Assembly (NCBI GenBank): GCA_964612105.1
Contig: CAZTEU010000001.1
Span: forward strand, 4,047-68,046
Direction: 5' to 3'
DNA: 64,000 bases
Source: an uncultured Gammaproteobacteria bacterium
Lineage (GTDB): Bacteria; Patescibacteriota; Patescibacteriia; Magasanikbacterales; UBA922
The notes beneath the pieces are model-generated. The model was not told the DNA's origin. It did not search any database and was given only the letters and a program-made list of their open reading frames with translations. This document shows, piece after piece, positions 1,082 to 49,588 of this stretch. The position numbers and the translations under genes are program-made. Every line of letters starts with the position of its first letter. Within the stretch, counting starts at the first letter, position 1.

Positions 1082-2527
1082 ATGTTGGAGGACATATTAA
1101 AATCAAAAAGCAAAAGATTCATAGTCTTTTGTTTTTGTTTTCTTTTGGGAGTTGCAATTGCCTCTCTTTTAGAAATTACAAATCGTACATATATCCTAAT
1201 ATGTTCTTTTATTTTTGTAACATTATTAATTGCATATTGGGATAATAAAAGAAAAATGTTTTTTGTTATTTGTCTGTTATTATTATTTCTAGGCATGTCT
1301 CGTTATACTATTTCTTTTCCAGAAAAGAGAATAAGGGAAACAAAAAAAGAGGTTGTTGGATATATTTCTGCAGAGCCAGATGTTCGTATGGATGGTGTGC
1401 GGTACATTGTTATGACAGAAGATATTGGGCGTGTTTATGTAAAATCCTTTTTATATCCAAGATACAATTATGGAGATACGTTAAAACTAAAATGCAATAT
1501 ACAAATACCAGAGCAGATAGAGGATTTTCGTTATGATATGTACCTAGCGCGTTATAAAGTGTTTGCAATTTGTGGAAATGGATTTATTACGGATATTGGA
1601 GAGATAGATGGGTCATTTATTTTAAGAAATATTTATTTGTTTAAGAATATAATAGCAAAGAAGATTAACTTGCTTTGGCACGAACCACACGCAAGTTTTA
1701 TGGCTGGACTTTTATACGGCTATCGTGGGGGATTGGGGAGTCTCAATGAATTATTTAGTAGAACAGGTGTTACACACATTGTGGCTATCTCTGGATATAA
1801 CATAACAATTATTTCTACGATCCTATCTAGCATATTAGTCCAATTATCTATTCCAAGAAAAAAAGCTTTTTATTTTATAGTTTCTGGGATTACTGTTTTT
1901 GTTATCTTTGCTGGACTAAGTGCATCTGTAGTAAGGGCAGGTGTAATGGGAATTGTTGTTCTAATGGCAAGGCAGTCAGGTAGATCTTCACGTGTAGGAA
2001 ATGTTCTTGTCCTTACTGCTGTAATTATGACAGTACAAAACCCATTAATACTAATGTGGGATGCTGGTTTCCAACTCTCTTTCATTTCTACTTTAGGTCT
2101 GGTGTATGTAAGCCCTTTGTTTTCTACTTCTTTTAAGAAGATTCCAGAGACTCTTGGGCTTCGTGAGTCTATAGAAGCTACGCTTTCCGCAACCATTGCA
2201 ACACTTCCACTTATACTTTTTCAGTTTAAAAGACTTTCTGTTGTGGCTGTAATAGTAAATGTTCTTATATTATGGATAATCCCACTTCTTATGTTGCTTG
2301 GATTTCTAGCTGTTGTAATGAGCTTCATTTTTATTCCACTTGCAAATATTATTGCATGGCTTGCTTGGGTTGGATTAAGTTATATTATTTTTATTGTGAA
2401 GTGGTTTGCCGGCCTTAGTTTTGCTGCGGTGGATATACAGATTCCGTGGTGGGGGATGGTAGTTTCTTATCTATTAATTATTTATATGTGCAAAAGACCA
2501 AACAAAAAAACACCTTTCGGTGTCTAG
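1082..2527 (+). CDS. comEC: ComEC/Rec2 competence channel, N-terminal membrane part (DUF4131 plus competence domain)
   Basis: Polytopic membrane protein with the ComEC N-terminal architecture. A strong SD (GGAGGGGG) lies 4 nt upstream of the ATG. It ends in a TAG that is followed by a GC-rich insert. Confidence 0.75.
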   Translation: MLEDILKSKSKRFIVFCFCFLLGVAIASLLEITNRTYILICSFIFVTLLIAYWDNKRKMFFVICLLLLFLGMSRYTISFPEKRIRETKKEVVGYISAEPDVRMDGVRYIVMTEDIGRVYVKSFLYPRYNYGDTLKLKCNIQIPEQIEDFRYDMYLARYKVFAICGNGFITDIGEIDGSFILRNIYLFKNIIAKKINLLWHEPHASFMAGLLYGYRGGLGSLNELFSRTGVTHIVAISGYNITIISTILSSILVQLSIPRKKAFYFIVSGITVFVIFAGLSASVVRAGVMGIVVLMARQSGRSSRVGNVLVLTAVIMTVQNPLILMWDAGFQLSFISTLGLVYVSPLFSTSFKKIPETLGLRESIEATLSATIATLPLILFQFKRLSVVAVIVNVLILWIIPLLMLLGFLAVVMSFIFIPLANIIAWLAWVGLSYIIFIVKWFAGLSFAAVDIQIPWWGMVVSYLLIIYMCKRPNKKTPFGV

Positions 2528-2854
2528 TTAATTATTTAGTTTTGACTCACCGGAGACCAACCTAGACGCGCGTTTGCGTTTTGGTTGGTCTCCGGTTCGT
2601 CAGAGTCTCCTTTCGTTGCGTGACAACTAGCTAGTGTCAGGGGCATAGCGGAGGTACATGATGTACTTTTGATGTCGTTACCGACTCTGGTGTGATAGCT
2701 CTACCCTACGGGAGGGTAAGAGTTATGTGCGCCAGGGGGTCACGCGACCCTTCATGCTGTTCTCCAGGTGTAGCATGGTTTGTGCACGCGGATGTGCTAT
2801 AGGCAAGCTTGGCTGGGAAAGTATAGCACAAAATAGTCGCTATGTCAAGGTCTT
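2528..2854 (+). ncRNA. GC-rich highly structured noncoding element (candidate ribozyme, intron or sRNA) between the two comEC halves
   Basis: 327 nt at roughly 55% GC against about 35% in the flanks. A 14-bp perfect stem CCGGAGACCAACC...GGTTGGTCTCCGG with a 20-nt loop. A long-range CAGAGTC/GACTCTG pairing. The GTACATgATGTAC and GGGTCacgcGACCC hairpins. An 8-bp GTGCTATA/TATAGCAC stem. No ORF. Confidence 0.4.
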
Positions 2855-3739
2855 ATGAGTGATAAAATAGAAAAAATAGCTTATTTTAGCCTAATTCTAC
2901 TAATTGTGGTTTTGGTCCTAATTTGGTTTATAAGGGAAAAACAGCCTGTGGATAACTCAAATATGCTAAAAATCACTTTTTTGGATATTGGACAGGGTGA
3001 TGCTACATTTATTGAATTTCCTAGCGGTGAACAGATGTTAATTGACTGTGCGATAGACGCTGTGGTTGTGGAAGCACTTGGTCGAACTATGGATTTTTAT
3101 GATAGGACAATTGATTATCTTGTTGTAACGCATCCAGACTTAGATCACTACGGTGGGTGTGCAGATGTTCTATATCGTTTTAATATTAAACATATTATTT
3201 ATAATGGTTTTCAGAAACCAAATAGTGGAGTGTGGAATGGATTTATGGATGCAGTAGAAAAAGAAATAGACCAGGGTGCCGAATATATAATTGCAGATAA
3301 TGTTTTTGATTTGAAAGTTGATGATGTGTACATTTCCTATTTGTTTCCAGACAGGCCTGTAGATGTGGAGGATACAAATAACAATACCTCAATTGTAATG
3401 CGTATAAGTTATGGCGAGCAGGATGTGTTATTAACTGCTGATGCTGAAAAAGAGTTAGAACAATATCTTGTCGATGTCTATGATAATGAGCTGGATGTCG
3501 AAATATTAAAAGTTGGACACCATGGCTCATTAACATCTAGTATTTTAGAATTCCTGGGAGTTACATCGCCAAAGGATGCGATAATATCTTCTGGTGAAGA
3601 AAATAATTTTGGACATCCATCTGCTCGTATTATTAAGAGAATTGAACGTAAAGGTGTAAACATTTGGCGAACAGACCAACAAGGTGATATAATAGCTGAG
3701 ATTTATCCACAATTATATACAATCAACTCAAGTAAATAA
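2855..3739 (+). CDS. comEC: ComEC C-terminal part: transmembrane helix plus metallo-beta-lactamase domain
   Basis: ITFLDIGQGDA and VVTHPDLDHYGG MBL motifs, as found in the ComEC C-terminal domain. Same reading frame as 1082..2527. Confidence 0.8.
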   Translation: MSDKIEKIAYFSLILLIVVLVLIWFIREKQPVDNSNMLKITFLDIGQGDATFIEFPSGEQMLIDCAIDAVVVEALGRTMDFYDRTIDYLVVTHPDLDHYGGCADVLYRFNIKHIIYNGFQKPNSGVWNGFMDAVEKEIDQGAEYIIADNVFDLKVDDVYISYLFPDRPVDVEDTNNNTSIVMRISYGEQDVLLTADAEKELEQYLVDVYDNELDVEILKVGHHGSLTSSILEFLGVTSPKDAIISSGEENNFGHPSARIIKRIERKGVNIWRTDQQGDIIAEIYPQLYTINSSK

Positions 3740-3741
3740 TT

Positions 3742-5148
3742 ATGAAAAAAGCATTATTTTTTGGAGTAGTCTTTTCGTTTCTTATTCTCATAGGTTCTGC
3801 TTCTGCTGAATCTTTTAATTTTTGGGTAAGTAACAACATACTCCTATCTCCAGGTGAGCATTTTGCCGGTGATACAGTAAACGTATACACTGTTGTTGTT
3901 AATAACAACTTTGATAATTTGACTTCTAAAGTGGAATTCCTAAACCATGGAAAAGTTATAGGTAGTACTTCTGTGTCTAATCTAAGTTTTGAAGAAGCAA
4001 AGCAAGTAAAAATAGGATATAAACTACCCGCAGGAAAACAGGAGTTTGCAGTACGCCTTTCTAATGTGCGTGTAGTAGAAGACAGCTCATCAAGATCTTT
4101 GTCATCTGAAGAGGTGGCAACATTTGATTCACAAGCAGTTTTTGATATAGATATTGACACAGATAATGACGATATTGGTGATAAGAAAGATCCTGATGAT
4201 GATAATGATGGGCTTAGTGACTCAGAAGAATATGAAATTGGATCTGACAAAAAGAAGGTAGACACAGATGGGGACACAATAAATGACAAGATTGAGGTAG
4301 ACAGAGGTCTAGATCCTACGAAATCAGATACAGATGGGGATGGTGTAAAGGATAATAAAGACCTGTTCCCAATCGACAAAGGAGAATGGGTTGATGCAGA
4401 TGGAGATGGAATTGGTGACAACAGCGATCCAGATGATGATAATGATGGATTAAGCGATAAAGATGAAAAGAAGTTGGGCAGTGATCCACACAAGGCAGAC
4501 ACAGATGGTGACGGGTTAAGCGACTCTGAAGAGAAAAAATATGGTAGCAGTCCTACAAAATCTGACACGGATGGTGATGGTATAGATGATAAGACGGAAG
4601 TTGCCAATAAGACAAATCCAGCAAATGCTGATTCAGACAATGATGGACTTAGTGACTCACAGGAAGTTCAATACAAGACAGATCCAAATAATAAGGATTC
4701 AGATGGTGATGGACTTAATGATGGAGAGGAGATAAAAAAAGGAACCAATCCTCTCAAAGAGGATTCAGATGGTGATGGTGTTCCAGATTTGACTGATATG
4801 TTTCCTTTAGATGAGAATGAGTCTGTCGATACAGACTTGGATGGAATAGGGAATAACGCAGATGAAGATGATGACAATGATGGACTAAGTGATAAAGAAG
4901 AGGAAGAGAAGGGGACAGATCCATTACTTTCAGATACAGATGATGATGGTGTTTCTGATGCTGATGAAGTGAAAGATGGGACAGACCCGCTAGAAGGGGA
5001 CACAGATGGAGATGGAACGAAGGACTCAAAAGATGATGATCCTTTGGTTCCTTCCAAGTTTAATAAAAAGCGTGCGGTCGGAATTGGGGCGTTAATCTCA
5101 TTTATACTAGCTGTTGGATTCTACGGAGCATATAGCGTTAAGAAATAA
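3742..5148 (+). CDS. Secreted Ca-binding protein with about 14 thrombospondin type-3-like repeats and a C-terminal TM anchor
   Basis: Signal peptide. Repeated DxDxDGxxDxxE / DTDGDG motifs. Ends in the hydrophobic helix AVGIGALISFILAVGFYGAYSVKK. Confidence 0.6.
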   Translation: MKKALFFGVVFSFLILIGSASAESFNFWVSNNILLSPGEHFAGDTVNVYTVVVNNNFDNLTSKVEFLNHGKVIGSTSVSNLSFEEAKQVKIGYKLPAGKQEFAVRLSNVRVVEDSSSRSLSSEEVATFDSQAVFDIDIDTDNDDIGDKKDPDDDNDGLSDSEEYEIGSDKKKVDTDGDTINDKIEVDRGLDPTKSDTDGDGVKDNKDLFPIDKGEWVDADGDGIGDNSDPDDDNDGLSDKDEKKLGSDPHKADTDGDGLSDSEEKKYGSSPTKSDTDGDGIDDKTEVANKTNPANADSDNDGLSDSQEVQYKTDPNNKDSDGDGLNDGEEIKKGTNPLKEDSDGDGVPDLTDMFPLDENESVDTDLDGIGNNADEDDDNDGLSDKEEEEKGTDPLLSDTDDDGVSDADEVKDGTDPLEGDTDGDGTKDSKDDDPLVPSKFNKKRAVGIGALISFILAVGFYGAYSVKK

Positions 5149-19165: not shown

Positions 19166-19194
19166 AGAAAATCGCTTGACTTTTGTATTTTAAT
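19166..19194 (+). promoter_or_regulatory. Sigma70-like promoter upstream of the GC-rich orphan gene
   Basis: TTGACT, a 17-nt spacer, TATAAT, all in AT-rich sequence. Confidence 0.45.
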
Positions 19195-19326
19195 AGTATA
19201 TAATCCCGCTCGTTCAAATAGGGGGGTGAACACTCGCCCTTTTCATATGCCTTAGTCCTGTAGAAGACAGGGCAAAGGCTTCACCCAGCACTCCACAAAG
19301 TGCTTTGACTAGAGGAAAAATACAGG

Positions 19327-20283
19327 ATGACTACCACCCAGCAAAGGTTTGAGTTCGGAAATGGAATTCAAGCAGACGTGCTCGCAAACGCACTCAGAGG
19401 CTCATCAGCGATGCTACTCGCAAGAAGCGGGGACACTATCGGAGCGCATGCAATCCATCGTCCAGACGGAGCAGGTCTGCAAGACCCGCCGTCGGACATC
19501 GAAGACTCCGTGCTCTTCTCCACCGGCCTGAGGTTCGTCCCGGGAGGAATCTCCCTCATCGGCTTCACGCCAACTGGCACAAACGGATTCGAAGCATGTC
19601 TCGACGCATTCGACGGCGAGCTCATCCGTCAGTTCGGGGACACGGAGGACACCATCCTCCAGCACTTCTTCACGGCGCCCACAAGGCTGATCACACGACG
19701 ACAGATTCGCGCCTATGCCACGGTTGATGGTAGCCGGAAGCAGATCTTCAAGAACGAGCGCATCACCTGTGGTGATATCGAGCAACAAGATGATGATCTG
19801 AATGCCGCATGCATCGCAATCAGCGACGGACGCAGTCGTCACCGCCTCCTGAAGGTCAATCCCATTACGGGACGAACCATCGAGGCTGCCGGCTTCGCCA
19901 GTGCGATCAAGCACGTCAAGATCAGCCCGAACGGGTTCGTCTACGTGACGCTCACAGACGGAACACTGCGAATCTGCGGTTTCTACCGCAATCGCGTTGA
20001 TTTCAACCGAGTCGGCTCGATTCACCACGTGCGCAAGGTCGTGTTGCTCAAGGGACAGCAACTCGCCATTCTGGGCTCTGGTCGCCATCTCCTCCGAATC
20101 CTGAGCTACGGCTCTCACATCAAGAGGATCTCACTCGAAATCCCGGGATGCATGTCTGAGGAAAACACTGTGGCTCTCGGCTTCAGCGGATGTCATCCGG
20201 TCATCGTCGATCGGTCCACCGGTGTGACAGCGTTCCTCCCGCCGATCTCGGACATCGTTCCTCTCAACTGTCATTCGAACTGA
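19327..20283 (+). CDS. Orphan 318-aa protein encoded in a GC-rich (about 57%) island; no recognisable domain
   Basis: A long ORF whose composition contrasts sharply with the flanks. The antisense ORF 19414..20118 is a GC artefact. No signal peptide. Confidence 0.5.
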   Translation: MTTTQQRFEFGNGIQADVLANALRGSSAMLLARSGDTIGAHAIHRPDGAGLQDPPSDIEDSVLFSTGLRFVPGGISLIGFTPTGTNGFEACLDAFDGELIRQFGDTEDTILQHFFTAPTRLITRRQIRAYATVDGSRKQIFKNERITCGDIEQQDDDLNAACIAISDGRSRHRLLKVNPITGRTIEAAGFASAIKHVKISPNGFVYVTLTDGTLRICGFYRNRVDFNRVGSIHHVRKVVLLKGQQLAILGSGRHLLRILSYGSHIKRISLEIPGCMSEENTVALGFSGCHPVIVDRSTGVTAFLPPISDIVPLNCHSN

Positions 20284-20501
20284 CCCTCGCTGGGTGGCCT
20301 GGCACCCCCGTCCTCGGTTTTGTGGCCTTGGATGGGGGTGCTGGGCGTATCTCTTAAACATACCAATATCCGATTTTATCGGATGAGGTTGTCTAGTGAT
20401 ACACCGGCTGTACCAAAGTACAGCCAGAATTCTGGATATATAACTATGTTGTATAACCAGAATTACCCTGTACATACAGTGTACAGGGTAATTATAACCA
20501 C

Positions 20502-21737: not shown

Positions 21738-22292
21738 ATGATGTTTGGGAAAAAAGTGTTTGTTCTGATGGTCGCATCTGCGCTGTTCGTTGGCTGTATG
21801 GCCGAGACCGAGGAAGATCTTCCTACCACGAAGCAGATTCAGGGCTCTGTCGCATACCAAGGTGTCGCGGTGGCAGGAGCTGAGGTGGTCGCGACAACCG
21901 GAGATGAGCCGGATTCGCCAAGCTTCGCAAGTGCATCGGATGATCTGGGCCACTTCTCGCTGGAGATGCCGAAAGATCTTCCGATCTGCAAAGTGCAGGC
22001 CGCTGTCGAACTCGATGGCAAGTTGCTTATTGGTGAAGCTCTGGATCCTGGCGAGTTGGACCCAATCGAGCTGAGGGAATTCACTGAGGAAGAGGCACAA
22101 GAAGCCCAGAAATCCTTCGATCTGGAGGTGGAAGGAGTCAGTACCTTTGTTGGGTACAAAGGGTGGGGTTGTGCGTGTCACAAGCAAGGCAAGTACTTCG
22201 GGAAGCTCTGCTGTGGCTACTACGAACTGAAAAAGCCTCAGAACGCAACCTTCTGCTCCATCCCACTACCGTTTGTCTGCTACTGGAAGTAG
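21738..22292 (+). CDS. GC-rich island lipoprotein with a Cys-rich C-terminus
   Basis: AAGGAGG SD, then MMFGKKVFVLMVASALFVGC (a lipobox). The C-terminal GWGCACHKQGKYFGKLCCGYYELKKPQNATFCSIPLPFVCYWK carries 8 Cys. I take the start at 21738, not the ORF-track 21660. Confidence 0.5.
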   Translation: MMFGKKVFVLMVASALFVGCMAETEEDLPTTKQIQGSVAYQGVAVAGAEVVATTGDEPDSPSFASASDDLGHFSLEMPKDLPICKVQAAVELDGKLLIGEALDPGELDPIELREFTEEEAQEAQKSFDLEVEGVSTFVGYKGWGCACHKQGKYFGKLCCGYYELKKPQNATFCSIPLPFVCYWK

Positions 22293-22309
22293 CATTCCAC
22301 TCTTTGATA

Positions 22310-22347
22310 GGGAGGGGTAGTAAAAACTACCCCTCCTTTCTTCTTTT
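22310..22347 (+). terminator. Intrinsic terminator after the lipoprotein gene
   Basis: GGGAGGGGTAGtaaaaaCTACCCCTCC then TTTCTTCTTTT. Confidence 0.6.
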
Positions 22348-22349
22348 AC

Positions 22350-22500
22350 TAACATAGCAAGCGCAGACCTACGTCGGATGAACCTATGTCTACAAAGGGA
22401 TACCTGTTCGGTAAGAGAACACAACGACCTCAAGGGAGTCGGTCCGCTTTCGAGCGGATTGACTCCTGGTCGTCGATTCACACACTACACGTGTGTTTTT
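22350..22500 (+). ncRNA. Candidate small structured RNA (GC-rich, nested stems, UUCG tetraloop, own terminator)
   Basis: CGACC..GGGAGTC[TCCGCTttcgAGCGGA]GACTCC.GGTCG nested helices. Ends with a CACACactacacGTGTG hairpin and T7. Confidence 0.3.
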
Positions 22501-22514
22501 TTATTAAGTAGTTT

Positions 22515-32640: not shown

Positions 32641-32781
32641 TACAAAAAAATGGCTATTGCCATAACGTTTATTTTATTGAACCACGAGCCGGGACCATAC
32701 TACGCATTCGCAGTGATGATCCCGGCTCGGGTAACAGGCGCCAGATACCCCGCAGGTATCCTTGTGGTCGCCGGTCAGCGG

Positions 32782-32855
32782 TCGGGTGGGCTGGATTTGA
32801 ACCAGCGACCTTGAGCTTTGTAGGCTCACACTCTACCTGACTGAGCTACCCCCCG
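32782..32855 (-). tRNA. tRNA whose apparent anticodon is ACA (it would read Cys UGU); identity needs checking
   Basis: Minus-strand read CGGGGGGTAGCTCAGTCAGGTAGAGTGTGAGCCTACAAAGCTCAAGGTCGCTGGTTCAAATCCAGCCCACCCGA. Anticodon stem TGAGC/GCTCA, loop CTACAAA. T-arm GCTGGTTCAAATCCAGC. Confidence 0.7.
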
Positions 32856-40689: not shown

Positions 40690-41040
40690 ATACAACTTCA
40701 ACCCATAACCGGAGACCTACTCCATGCCACCAGGACTAGTAAGAGACTACTCGTTCAGACCAACAGCAATGCACAGGAAGTGCATGATGCAGGGATGTCG
40801 AGGATCTCGAGGGGGGTGTGTGCATTGCAGACACACTGGCTTCAAGCTTTCAAAGTCGGAGATTCGAGAGATCGATAATTCCGAACGGAGAAGCAGAAGG
40901 CGGCGTCGAATGCGCTAGACCCATGGTTCCAGGCAAAAACAACTAGTGGGGTTGAAGATGCAAAAGGACATTGTTTCGACCCCGACCTTTTACTTTGATT
41001 ACTCAATGTAAAAGTTAGGGGATAGGTCGAAGCAAACATA
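40690..41040. other. About 350-nt noncoding region with moderately elevated GC and several hairpins; candidate ncRNA
   Basis: No convincing ORF; the 64-aa ORF 40724..40918 is Arg-rich and low-complexity. GTGTGTGcattgcagaCACACT and TCGAGgatcTCGA stems. Ends at the AAAGAACCCGGttGGGTTCTTTTTTT terminator (41041..41066). Confidence 0.25.
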
Positions 41041-41064
41041 AAAGAACCCGGTTGGGTTCTTTTT

Positions 41065-42567
41065 TTACATGAATTTTGGTAGCTTTAGTCTGTGGAACAC
41101 CCTGTACAGTATAGTTATGGTGCGATCGAATATATTTGGAGGTTTCATAATATATGTAGCAGAAAATACTACAAATAGTAGTCCAAACACGTGAAATAAT
41201 GCAGGTGCTGTAATGTTCATAACTAGAAAACTTACCAGCCCTGCCAATAAACCAACATAAAAATCATGGTAATCAGCAACAGACCTAGTTTTCTGTATTA
41301 ATTGAAAGGCTAGTAGTAGCAATATAACTATGTATGTTCCGGCACCAAGCAGTCCAAGTTCTGTCCACATTTCTAAATACCCCCAATCAAACTGATTTGT
41401 TTCTTTAAGCTCGAGTGTAGAAGGGTCTGTATACTTTACTGTTGCACCAAGTCCATGACCAAAGAAAGGTCTTTCTTCAATCTTTCTCAAGATTGGATCT
41501 AGTAGTGTCATGCGTATGTTAGAACTTGTCTCGATTGTTGGAGAGGAAATACTCAATAACCTTACCCCAAACAATTGCCAACCTGTAGAGGTAAGATTGC
41601 TAGCGACAAGGCTTATACATGTGAAAGAGGCAATAAGTAGAACTATTAAAAATGCACACTCTTTTATCCACTCAATGATCTTATGTTTCCATAATAGAAC
41701 TATAAGCCCAGCACCAAGAGCAAGGAAATAACCACGTGAAAGATTAAGTGCAAGTACTAACATGCAAGAGAACAGCAAATATCTCCACAATGTGTGGTGC
41801 TTTTCATCACGCATTAGTAGTGATGCTATGATTAGTGAGATAGGAACCATTAATAGATGTTCCGGTAGAACTACCCTAAAAAAACCATTACCCATATCTG
41901 TAATTTTACCCATTGATATGTTTCTCAACCATGCATAGAAATCACCATGTATAGAAGCTAAATCAGCTGAGAATGTTATAAATATTATAAGTGATAATAT
42001 AGCCGACCCAATGATGAATACAGTTAGTAATCTTACAAGATATTCATGTGAGTCTTCCTCCTGAAACAGATGATATGCTGGTAGTAATAAGATTAAATAC
42101 ATGTATGGAACAATGTCTTGCGCTATGTTAATGACATTGTGTCCATTCCAAAAACCAAGTCCAATAGCTACTATTAAAAATATGAAAAACGGAAACCCTA
42201 TATAATAAGCACTATTACGTATATGTAACCTCTCCCTGAGATTTTTATTTGCAAGTGTTTGTGATGCCCAAAGCATCAAAAATATAATTGTAAGTACACT
42301 CCTTAAAGATAGTCCCAATAAATCAAGAAAATGCCCAGCTCCACCAAGTAGTATTTCACCAATAAGGACGTACCAAGCCCACTTTGGATTTTCATAATAC
42401 AAAATTCCGAAAGCCATTATTACAAGGAACATGAGTATTCCCTGTGCAATAGGATGATCTACAATAAACCAGGATAGTAATCTTAACCCAAAAAAAGCAA
42501 AAAACAGCCAAAGCGTCTGCCTATCAAAAAAAATAGATTTGGATGTAAGCCTAAATTGATAAAACAT
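41065..42567 (-). CDS. O-antigen ligase / Wzy_C-like polytopic membrane protein
   Basis: 12 or more TM helices with a periplasmic loop FFGHGLGATVKY. Confidence 0.45.
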   Translation of the reverse strand: MFYQFRLTSKSIFFDRQTLWLFFAFFGLRLLSWFIVDHPIAQGILMFLVIMAFGILYYENPKWAWYVLIGEILLGGAGHFLDLLGLSLRSVLTIIFLMLWASQTLANKNLRERLHIRNSAYYIGFPFFIFLIVAIGLGFWNGHNVINIAQDIVPYMYLILLLPAYHLFQEEDSHEYLVRLLTVFIIGSAILSLIIFITFSADLASIHGDFYAWLRNISMGKITDMGNGFFRVVLPEHLLMVPISLIIASLLMRDEKHHTLWRYLLFSCMLVLALNLSRGYFLALGAGLIVLLWKHKIIEWIKECAFLIVLLIASFTCISLVASNLTSTGWQLFGVRLLSISSPTIETSSNIRMTLLDPILRKIEERPFFGHGLGATVKYTDPSTLELKETNQFDWGYLEMWTELGLLGAGTYIVILLLLAFQLIQKTRSVADYHDFYVGLLAGLVSFLVMNITAPALFHVFGLLFVVFSATYIMKPPNIFDRTITILYRVFHRLKLPKFM

Positions 42568-49071: not shown

Positions 49072-49422
49072 ATGGGACATAAAAAACCTGAGTCAGACTT
49101 CGACCTTCATTTTGTAACAGCCTCTCCATTTCAAAAGTGGCTGGACAAGATAAACCCAGAAACTGCATTGTTGTTGGCAACCTTTTGGAACTGTATGATG
49201 GTAGTCATCTTATCTGCACCTCTCATCTGGGTAACCACTGACATGGATATGAGCTCTTCCATCGTATACGTTGCGGAGTATTGGTCTGAGTTTGCCCTCT
49301 TTATGATTGCGGCATTGGCACAACTCGCTATTCTCCTCATAGCAATGATTTCGTCTGTTCTGGCCTTCTCTGGACTTCTTTATCTGCTCGATAGGGTGTG
49401 CATGCGCTGTTCCAAATCCTGA
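49072..49422 (+). CDS. Small 3-TM membrane protein in a GC-elevated islet
   Basis: ORF in a region of about 48% GC, followed by a terminator near 49505..49540. Confidence 0.3.
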   Translation: MGHKKPESDFDLHFVTASPFQKWLDKINPETALLLATFWNCMMVVILSAPLIWVTTDMDMSSSIVYVAEYWSEFALFMIAALAQLAILLIAMISSVLAFSGLLYLLDRVCMRCSKS

Positions 49423-49588
49423 GTCCTCTCCGACCTACGGTCGTTGTACGCCGAACTGATTCGCTTCATGCGACAGCCAAGCGTCATGCGTGGGTCGGAA
49501 CAGTTCAAAAAAACACCAACAATGGTGTTTTTTTGTTTTATGCTCGTATTTACTTGATTTTTTAGCCAAATTTGTTACTATTAGTACT

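Follow-up and report, generated by a model that had tools for sequence, protein, structure and literature searches.

The 327-nucleotide (nt) spacer between the genes comEC-N and MBL (metallo-beta-lactamase fold) in a contig of Candidatus Magasanikbacteria (Patescibacteria) is probably, with some reservation, a self-contained and lineage-specific transcription unit on the minus strand, convergent with comEC-N and yielding a non-coding RNA of ~310 nt. The spacer was analysed within a stretch of 64 kb, here called the window, which has a content of guanine and cytosine (GC) of 37.6% and is matched exactly by the JGI contig Ga0104999_1000091. What could be observed directly are the signals in the sequence, the lack of a coding frame, the fact that comEC-N and MBL are separate genes, the lack of the spacer in the closest relatives, and parallel units in other lineages. 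The features of the locus are as follows, with positions counted from the start of the window.

1082..2527, plus strand: comEC-N, a complete and separate gene of 481 amino acids (aa) with the Pfam domains DUF4131 and Competence (Competence 5.8e-48)
2500..2525, minus strand: predicted intrinsic terminator, a stem-loop at 2525->2508 (core ACACC-GAAA-GGTGT) followed by TTTTGTTT (2507->2500), overlapping the 3' end of comEC-N
2544..2607, strand-neutral: long hairpin with a perfect 14-bp stem (2549-2562 / 2583-2596), a 20-nt loop holding a 4-bp inner stem, and an outer 5-bp closure GACTC/GAGTC (2544-2548 / 2603-2607)
2608..2813, minus strand: GC-rich body of the predicted RNA, ~205 nt, with several hairpins of 4-6 bp including one with a GUAA tetraloop
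2848->2820, minus strand: predicted sigma-70-type promoter with -35 box TTGACA (2848->2843), a 17-nt spacer and an extended -10 box TGcTATACT (-10 at 2825->2820), 11 of 12 matches
2855..3739, plus strand: MBL-fold (Lactamase_B) gene of 294 aa with its own N-terminal transmembrane helix, the partner of comEC-N across the lineage

The predicted promoter is the only promoter-like site that a promoter scan found in 2200-3200, and the minus-strand stem-loop at 2525->2508 is the only terminator-like site that a terminator scan found there. Transcription would start near 2813, and the -35 box is located 7 nt from the MBL start codon. Sites with at least 11 of 12 matches number 10 in the window compared with 2.9 +/- 1.5 in shuffled sequence (128 kb of strand). 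Their placement was judged by reading against the lists of open reading frames (ORFs) and tRNAs, and all ten are found upstream of a gene or an RNA, including tRNA-Val, a unit with tRNA-Cys and the gene for ribosomal protein L33. The promoter of tRNA-Val (25937->25909) is identical in hexamers and spacing to the one at 2848->2820. The predicted promoter and terminator bracket the GC-rich block exactly, on the strand opposite to comEC, and the predicted product is an ORF-less RNA of ~310 nt from about 2813 to about 2500 on the minus strand. The last ~6 codons of comEC-N (TPFGV*) come from the terminator hairpin and are absent in relatives (C-termini compared with those of the loci L086, L001, L004, L007 and L008).

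The body of the predicted RNA has a Shine-Dalgarno-like GGAG 6 nt before an AUG that opens an ORF of only 10 codons. The longest ORFs past the predicted start are 10, 17 and 28 aa, none of them hydrophobic, and all six frames of the spacer contain stop codons, at least three per ~68 codons. Six-frame translations and GC values for the three codon positions displayed no codon periodicity at the third position (GC3), unlike the ORFs of other GC-rich cassettes, where GC3 is 0.60-0.83.

An earlier note on this DNA, made from the sequence alone, had described the spacer as GC-rich and heavily base-paired. The excess of GC is confirmed, with about 51-55% compared with 35%, with 0.465-0.53 compared with 0.29-0.40 in the flanks (200-nt windows), and with a peak of 0.553 (150-nt window) compared with a mean of 0.376 for the window. 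Base pairing holds for the spacer as a whole, which folds better than its shuffles on either strand (z score -6.3 on the plus and -6.4 on the minus strand), but not for all of its parts: the surplus structure is mostly one hairpin, with z = -8.8 (plus) and -7.7 (minus) for the hairpin region 2527-2612 alone and -1.9 for the minus-strand body. The perfect 14-bp stem of this hairpin, also reported in the note, stands, and no inverted repeat of 14 bp arose in 100 shuffles of the spacer. The hairpin starts 17 nt past the comEC-N stop; read on the minus strand, both it and these 17 nt come before the terminator.

The 8-bp and 7-bp helices listed in the same note fared less well. There are two other 8-mer inverted repeats where 0.5 are expected and seven 7-mers where 2.2 are expected (14-bp stem excluded); the helices are thus only weakly above chance. 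The long-range helices form on the plus strand only, because their 3' partners fall in the minus-strand promoter. The plus strand of the spacer is rich in G and U. The 10-mer ACCGGAGACC, which recurs at 40708 and had been taken as a link to the non-coding region 40690..41040, is a chance match, as 36 of the 10-mers in the spacer recur in the window compared with 34 for the shuffled spacer.

It was correctly observed before that the two ORFs share a frame across a gap of 327 nt, and the ORF list bears this out. The conclusion that an element had been inserted in frame into a single comEC does not hold. One such pair of ORFs in three would share a frame by chance, the spacer has 9 stop codons in frame 0, and both ORFs are complete, with the comEC-N stop at 2525-2527 and the MBL start at 2855. 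Loci of ~9 kb from relatives, 80 from species-representative genomes and 80 from metagenomes, show both genes in 127 cases, and in none of the 127 are they fused. All 120 of the 120 best ComEC-N homologues are 440-525 aa in length with DUF4131 and Competence and lack an MBL domain.

The arrangement of the two genes varies in these 127 loci. They overlap or abut in 41, typically by 4, 17 or 22 nt, and are separated by a short gap in 12. At least 44 loci (L002, L003, L009, L019, L040, L062 and at least 38 others) have a gene for a ~200-aa class I S-adenosylmethionine (SAM)-dependent methyltransferase with an LDVGAGTGRL motif between comEC-N and MBL, which suggests a three-gene module in many Magasanikbacteria. 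The closest relatives by ComEC-N identity are L086 (69%), L001 (68%) and the P0003 contig (66%). Their comEC-N and MBL overlap by 22 nt in different frames (L086 and L001) or by ~50 nt (P0003), and none of them has a spacer. The comparison indicates that the spacer is extra DNA relative to the nearest relatives, and that separate comEC-N and MBL genes are the normal state across Candidatus Magasanikbacteria and not a disrupted gene. Two separate genes in relatives and the lack of a conserved homologue had been named beforehand as speaking against an intervening element, and this is largely what was found.

In five other lineages the comEC-N/MBL junction holds a GC-enriched minus-strand unit whose terminator lies at the comEC-N stop.

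L011, minus strand: promoter TTGACA-17-TTTAAT, terminator, no ORF, 52% GC compared with 37%, z = -8.6
L261, minus strand: promoter TTGACC-17-TATTAT, AGGAGG, 66-aa ORF (GC3 0.81), 13-bp hairpin with a 22-nt loop, terminator
L027, 4137-4530, minus strand: 11/12 promoter, 71-aa two-helix ORF, 11-bp 3' hairpin, terminator
L264, 2341-2729, minus strand: 11/12 promoter, 71-aa two-helix ORF, 11-bp hairpin, terminator
L043, 2242-2700, minus strand: 11/12 promoter (read by eye), 71-aa two-helix ORF, 11-bp 3' hairpin, terminator

The small two-helix ORFs of L027, L264 and L043 are convergent with comEC-N; those of L027 and L043 specify membrane peptides and are followed by structured 3' untranslated regions (UTRs). 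In L261, L027 and L043 the hairpin occupies the place within the unit that the 14-bp hairpin has in the window. L027 and L264 are 93% identical in ComEC-N and ~67-75% identical in the 71-aa ORF, where the frame is kept open by in-frame indels. L043 is ~72% identical to both in ComEC-N. Its ORF has no recognisable similarity to theirs, but it keeps the 3' hairpin module CGCTTCTCGGT/ACCGAGAAGCG. Compensatory changes are seen in the terminator stem of the three units (TTCGCC/GGCGAA versus ACAC/GTGT). The L027 peptide is matched by its sister alone among 5.8 billion proteins, and the junction proteins of 66-71 aa are orphans. No sequence is detectably shared between the element in the window and any of the five units. 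Alignment of the L011 gap with the element in MAFFT gave no convincing homology on either strand, and the motifs in common, GGAGAAC..AUG and UCGCGUG, are 7-mers expected by chance. The idea that the junction is a hot spot for insertion was dropped, because the frequency of cassettes there (~4%) is below the cassette density of the window itself.

Another insertion is found at the same junction in L060 (1210-1334), where ~125 nt with 64% GC in a genome of 39% GC are closed by a 10-bp inverted repeat, CACGTCATCC / GGATGACGTG. It looks like a palindromic insertion element.

The window itself contains ~7 further GC-rich cassettes with a common build: the promoter is AT-rich and of host type, the body is GC-rich, and the unit has a long hairpin and a terminator. 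Six of them are listed here.

19176-20446: 318-aa ORF, GC3 0.67, matching only itself among 5.8 billion proteins
21738-22510: lipoprotein-like ORF and a 3' UTR with z = -7.5
29231-28560, minus strand: membrane protein
33113-32617, minus strand: tRNA-Cys (32780-32855) in a GC-rich unit of ~450 nt with an 11/12 promoter at 33113->33085
40695-41067, plus strand: ORF-less unit of ~350 nt, ~49% GC, z = -6.0, with a strong terminator at 41040-41067
49072-49545: ORF (GC3 0.50) followed by a hairpin

GC3 is 0.61-0.67 in three of the coding cassettes compared with ~0.25 in host genes. The coding bodies fold near chance (z = 0 to -2.9) and the non-coding parts have z = -4 to -8. The products of the coding cassettes look like a lipoprotein and membrane proteins; searches of the island ORFs against Pfam, PHROGs and NCBIfam gave no significant match, the sole exception being a sub-threshold hit of the 210-aa ORF to Pfam Spo0M (E = 0.0065). 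Sequence common to the islands is limited to matches of 11-15 nt, mostly T-runs of terminators. The tRNA-Cys unit has a leader of ~220 nt and a trailer of ~140 nt with a 20-bp hairpin (z = -6.5), and a separate promoter for the tRNA would not fit into the unit. The ORF-less unit at 40695-41067 has a closing stem ACUUCAACCC/GGGGUUGAAG round a domain of ~250 nt. It has no significant Rfam match, with ncr1015 below threshold over the terminator region (33.3 bits, E = 0.63), and may be another RNA gene of no recognised family.

Searches for known RNA families placed the element in none of them. An Rfam cmscan of 2300-3100 on both strands with permissive filters gave no family at E <= 10. This includes the P3-P8 core of group I introns (RF00028), for which whole-window scans were negative too, and the small self-cleaving ribozymes (hammerhead, twister, HDV-like, pistol and hatchet). 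Group II introns (RF00029, RF02001 and related models) had no Rfam match either, and the 14-bp stem of the sole long hairpin is perfect and has no bulge. RNase P RNA, tmRNA, 6S and SRP RNA gave no Rfam match, the whole-window Rfam scans returned three tRNAs only, and ARAGORN found no tmRNA or tRNA-like part; the earlier note had not recognised RNase P, tmRNA or group I motifs by eye. Rfam scans of the gaps in ten related loci (L011, L060, L061, L027, L043, L030, L034, L009, L017 and L031) gave nothing beyond tRNAs.

Searches for copies of the element gave a similar picture. No match was found by blastn in 50,697 phage and 72,556 plasmid records. Terminal inverted repeats and second copies were not found in the window and ~170 related loci, nor were copies in the phage and plasmid collections. 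Exact 14-mers and 15-mers of the element had 118 and 7 matches in viral contigs, none of which extends past ~20 nt, and these were rejected as chance in a large database. Scanning metagenomes for this hairpin (14-bp stem, free loop) returned 0 matches from a collection without the source samples, in which even the source contig is missing.

If the predicted signals work in the cell, the sigma-70 promoter at 2848->2820 would start an RNA near 2813. This RNA would cross ~205 nt of GC-rich, ORF-less body and then the 14-bp hairpin, a 3'-proximal element that would be its sole strongly supported structural feature, and would end at the terminator 2525->2508 and its T-tract, over the last comEC-N codons. 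The firing of the promoter, the accumulation and stability of the RNA and any regulatory effect are predicted from sequence. The main effect would be expected in cis, where convergent transcription and a fully complementary antisense RNA might hinder read-through from comEC-N, and read-through into MBL would have to contend with polymerase collision and duplex formation. Where comEC-N and MBL were ancestrally coupled in translation (overlap of 4-22 nt), the element would thereby put a convergent promoter and an antisense RNA. Because this coupling is lost here, read-through from comEC-N is apparently the sole route to MBL transcription. The RNA might also act in trans, but nothing supports this.

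With its own promoter, a body of deviant GC, a 3' hairpin and a terminator between conserved genes, the unit matches both the cassettes in the window and the junction cassettes of other Magasanikbacteria. It might be a functional, ORF-less member of an undescribed population of GC-rich cassettes, about one per 8 kb, whose products are structured RNAs or orphan proteins, membrane-bound or secreted, and its ~310-nt antisense RNA might gate MBL, the DNA-uptake nuclease partner of ComEC. This extended version is put forward tentatively and is in itself unlikely.

Several observations weigh against a minus-strand RNA gene. The promoter and the terminator are consensus matches alone. The whole spacer reaches a lower fold energy on the plus strand (-139.7 compared with -110.8 kcal/mol), and apart from the hairpin the structure is modest, with z = -3.6 for 2610-2854 on the plus strand and z = -1.9 for 2610-2813 on the minus strand. 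No plus-strand promoter for MBL was found by the scan of 2200-3200, and strong convergent transcription would presumably be a burden on the cell. Searches with nhmmer and blastn against the rest of the window and ~170 related loci, of which ~9 kb each were covered, returned self matches only. Copies of the element from at least ten assemblies (JGI, ENA and Logan) are 100% identical, and the differences in their flanks are indels only. With no homologue and with identical copies, neither covariation nor signs of selection are seen. Cassettes occur at the comEC-N/MBL junction in ~6 of 145 loci (~4%), compared with ~8 in the 64 kb of the window.

The spacer could also be the relic of a cassette for a small protein, a 66-71-aa orphan as in L261, L027/L264 and L043, in which the frame was lost and a functionless RNA remains with signals that have not decayed. 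In layout and size the spacer agrees with the coding cassettes of this junction, a Shine-Dalgarno-like GGAG stands before an AUG yet leads into 10 codons only, and in its degree of structure (z = -1.9) the body stays within the range of the coding bodies in other cassettes (z = +0.1 to -3.6). However, the stops in every frame and the lack of residual GC3 periodicity leave no trace of a frame, so that any former frame must have decayed long ago, while the 11/12 promoter with its extended -10 box, the perfect 14-bp stem and the terminator are still intact. None of the coding cassettes was found to resemble the spacer in sequence, and the L011 unit is also ORF-less and very strongly structured. 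A relic is a doubtful explanation, if one to be taken seriously. It is less probable still that the plus strand is the functional one and that the spacer is a cis element of a comEC-N-MBL transcript, either a terminating or attenuating hairpin or an element for RNase processing or stability that uncouples the genes. The better folding on the plus strand, the long-range helices formed there only, and the position of the hairpin shortly after the comEC-N stop, followed by a moderately U-rich tail UCCUUUCGUU, would fit such a role. Lower energy on a G+U-rich strand is, however, expected from composition alone. The terminator scan found no plus-strand terminator there, the closest relatives manage without a spacer, and the minus-strand promoter and terminator and the layout of L011, L261, L027 and L043 would be left unexplained.

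Inert foreign or mobile DNA with fortuitous signals, such as a miniature inverted-repeat transposable element (MITE), a repetitive extragenic palindromic (REP) or GC-cluster-like sequence, or a horizontally acquired scrap, is quite improbable. The absence from the closest relatives, a GC content far from that of the host, the other GC-rich islands with foreign codon usage and the palindromic insert of L060 at the same junction speak for it. Against it, the element is single-copy without terminal inverted repeats, and an 11/12 promoter and a terminator at both edges on the same strand are unlikely by chance because only 10 such promoter sites exist in 128 kb of strand. The original proposal of a self-splicing intron, a ribozyme or another intervening element in a once continuous comEC can hardly be upheld: the length of the spacer is a multiple of three and its sequence is GC-rich and foldable, but no family of group I or group II introns or of small ribozymes was matched, the complete ORFs and the 9 stops in the common frame leave no exon continuity to restore, no relative is fused, and in the closest relatives the two genes overlap in different frames. 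The third proposal made at the time, a small RNA (sRNA) lodged between two halves of a split gene, comes nearest to the favoured minus-strand RNA gene; the RNA is predicted on the opposite strand, and the genes on either side are not halves of one.

The neighbours at the locus include leucyl-tRNA synthetase (LeuRS), ComEC, an amino-acid-kinase-family (UMP-kinase-like) protein, MetK and a Mur ligase. Directly downstream of MBL, at 3742-5148 on the plus strand, a protein of 468 aa is encoded that combines a signal peptide and a membrane anchor at the C-terminus with numerous Asp-rich repeats of the DxDxDG type (calcium-binding-like). It has no Pfam match on record and is kept in the same position in close relatives. 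LeuRS in the closest relatives (L086 1-1984; P0003 contig) is ~1000 aa, and within it Pfam places additional Abhydrolase or Methyltransferase domains; in the organism of the window it is 785 aa without these domains.

For annotation, a split ComEC-N/MBL, often with a SAM methyltransferase between the two, should be seen as normal in Magasanikbacteria. The wider pattern outweighs the 327 nt: an AT-rich, reduced Patescibacteria genome has many GC-rich cassettes with promoter and terminator and with either foreign codon usage or no ORF, one of which sits antisense inside a DNA-uptake operon. No description of GC-rich cassettes or of a split comEC in Patescibacteria was found in the literature. 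In organisms whose way of life depends on taking up foreign DNA, the cassettes might, if expressed, supply small proteins and RNAs specific to a lineage. Host DNA, phage or de novo formation are candidates for the origin of the cassettes, and the whole pattern is a lead and not a finding.

Among known systems, MITEs, REP sequences and other palindromic insertion elements are recognised by multiple copies and terminal inverted repeats, neither of which was seen in the window or the fetched loci. Group I and group II introns share with the element that a GC-rich, foldable insert stands between pieces that are fused in the canonical ComEC of other phyla. The element differs in having no core motifs or Rfam match and in its complete flanking ORFs, and the split is ancestral and usually without a spacer.

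The type I toxin-antitoxin loci txpA/ratA and bsrG/SR4 of Firmicutes are convergent antisense pairs that overlap at their 3' ends. The element is likewise convergent, with its 3' end over the 3' end of its neighbour, and the sister cassettes in L027 and L043 encode small two-helix membrane peptides. In contrast to these loci, the element has no toxin-like ORF, and the partner that it overlaps is the large housekeeping-type comEC-N and not an sRNA.

Lineage-specific sRNA genes of bacteria consist of a sigma-70 promoter, a structured body and a Rho-independent terminator. The element differs from them in having no homologue and no seed or target region, and its body is barely above chance structure on the transcribed strand. 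It is similar in its predicted own promoter and intrinsic terminator, in its size of ~310 nt, and in being non-coding, intergenic and GC-enriched in an AT-rich genome.

Phage morons have their own promoter and terminator and a deviant GC content, are inserted between conserved neighbours, and occur as varied units at one site (PMC2920897). No phage or prophage setting was found for the element, as the neighbouring genes are bacterial and phage BLAST was negative; it lies in a Patescibacteria chromosome, has no ORF and has no copy in any other searched genome. In other respects it is built like a moron. It stands between genes that are contiguous in relatives (L001, L086 and the P0003 contig), it has a predicted promoter and terminator of its own and a GC content of about 0.51-0.55 compared with 0.376, and different units are found at the same junction in different genomes.

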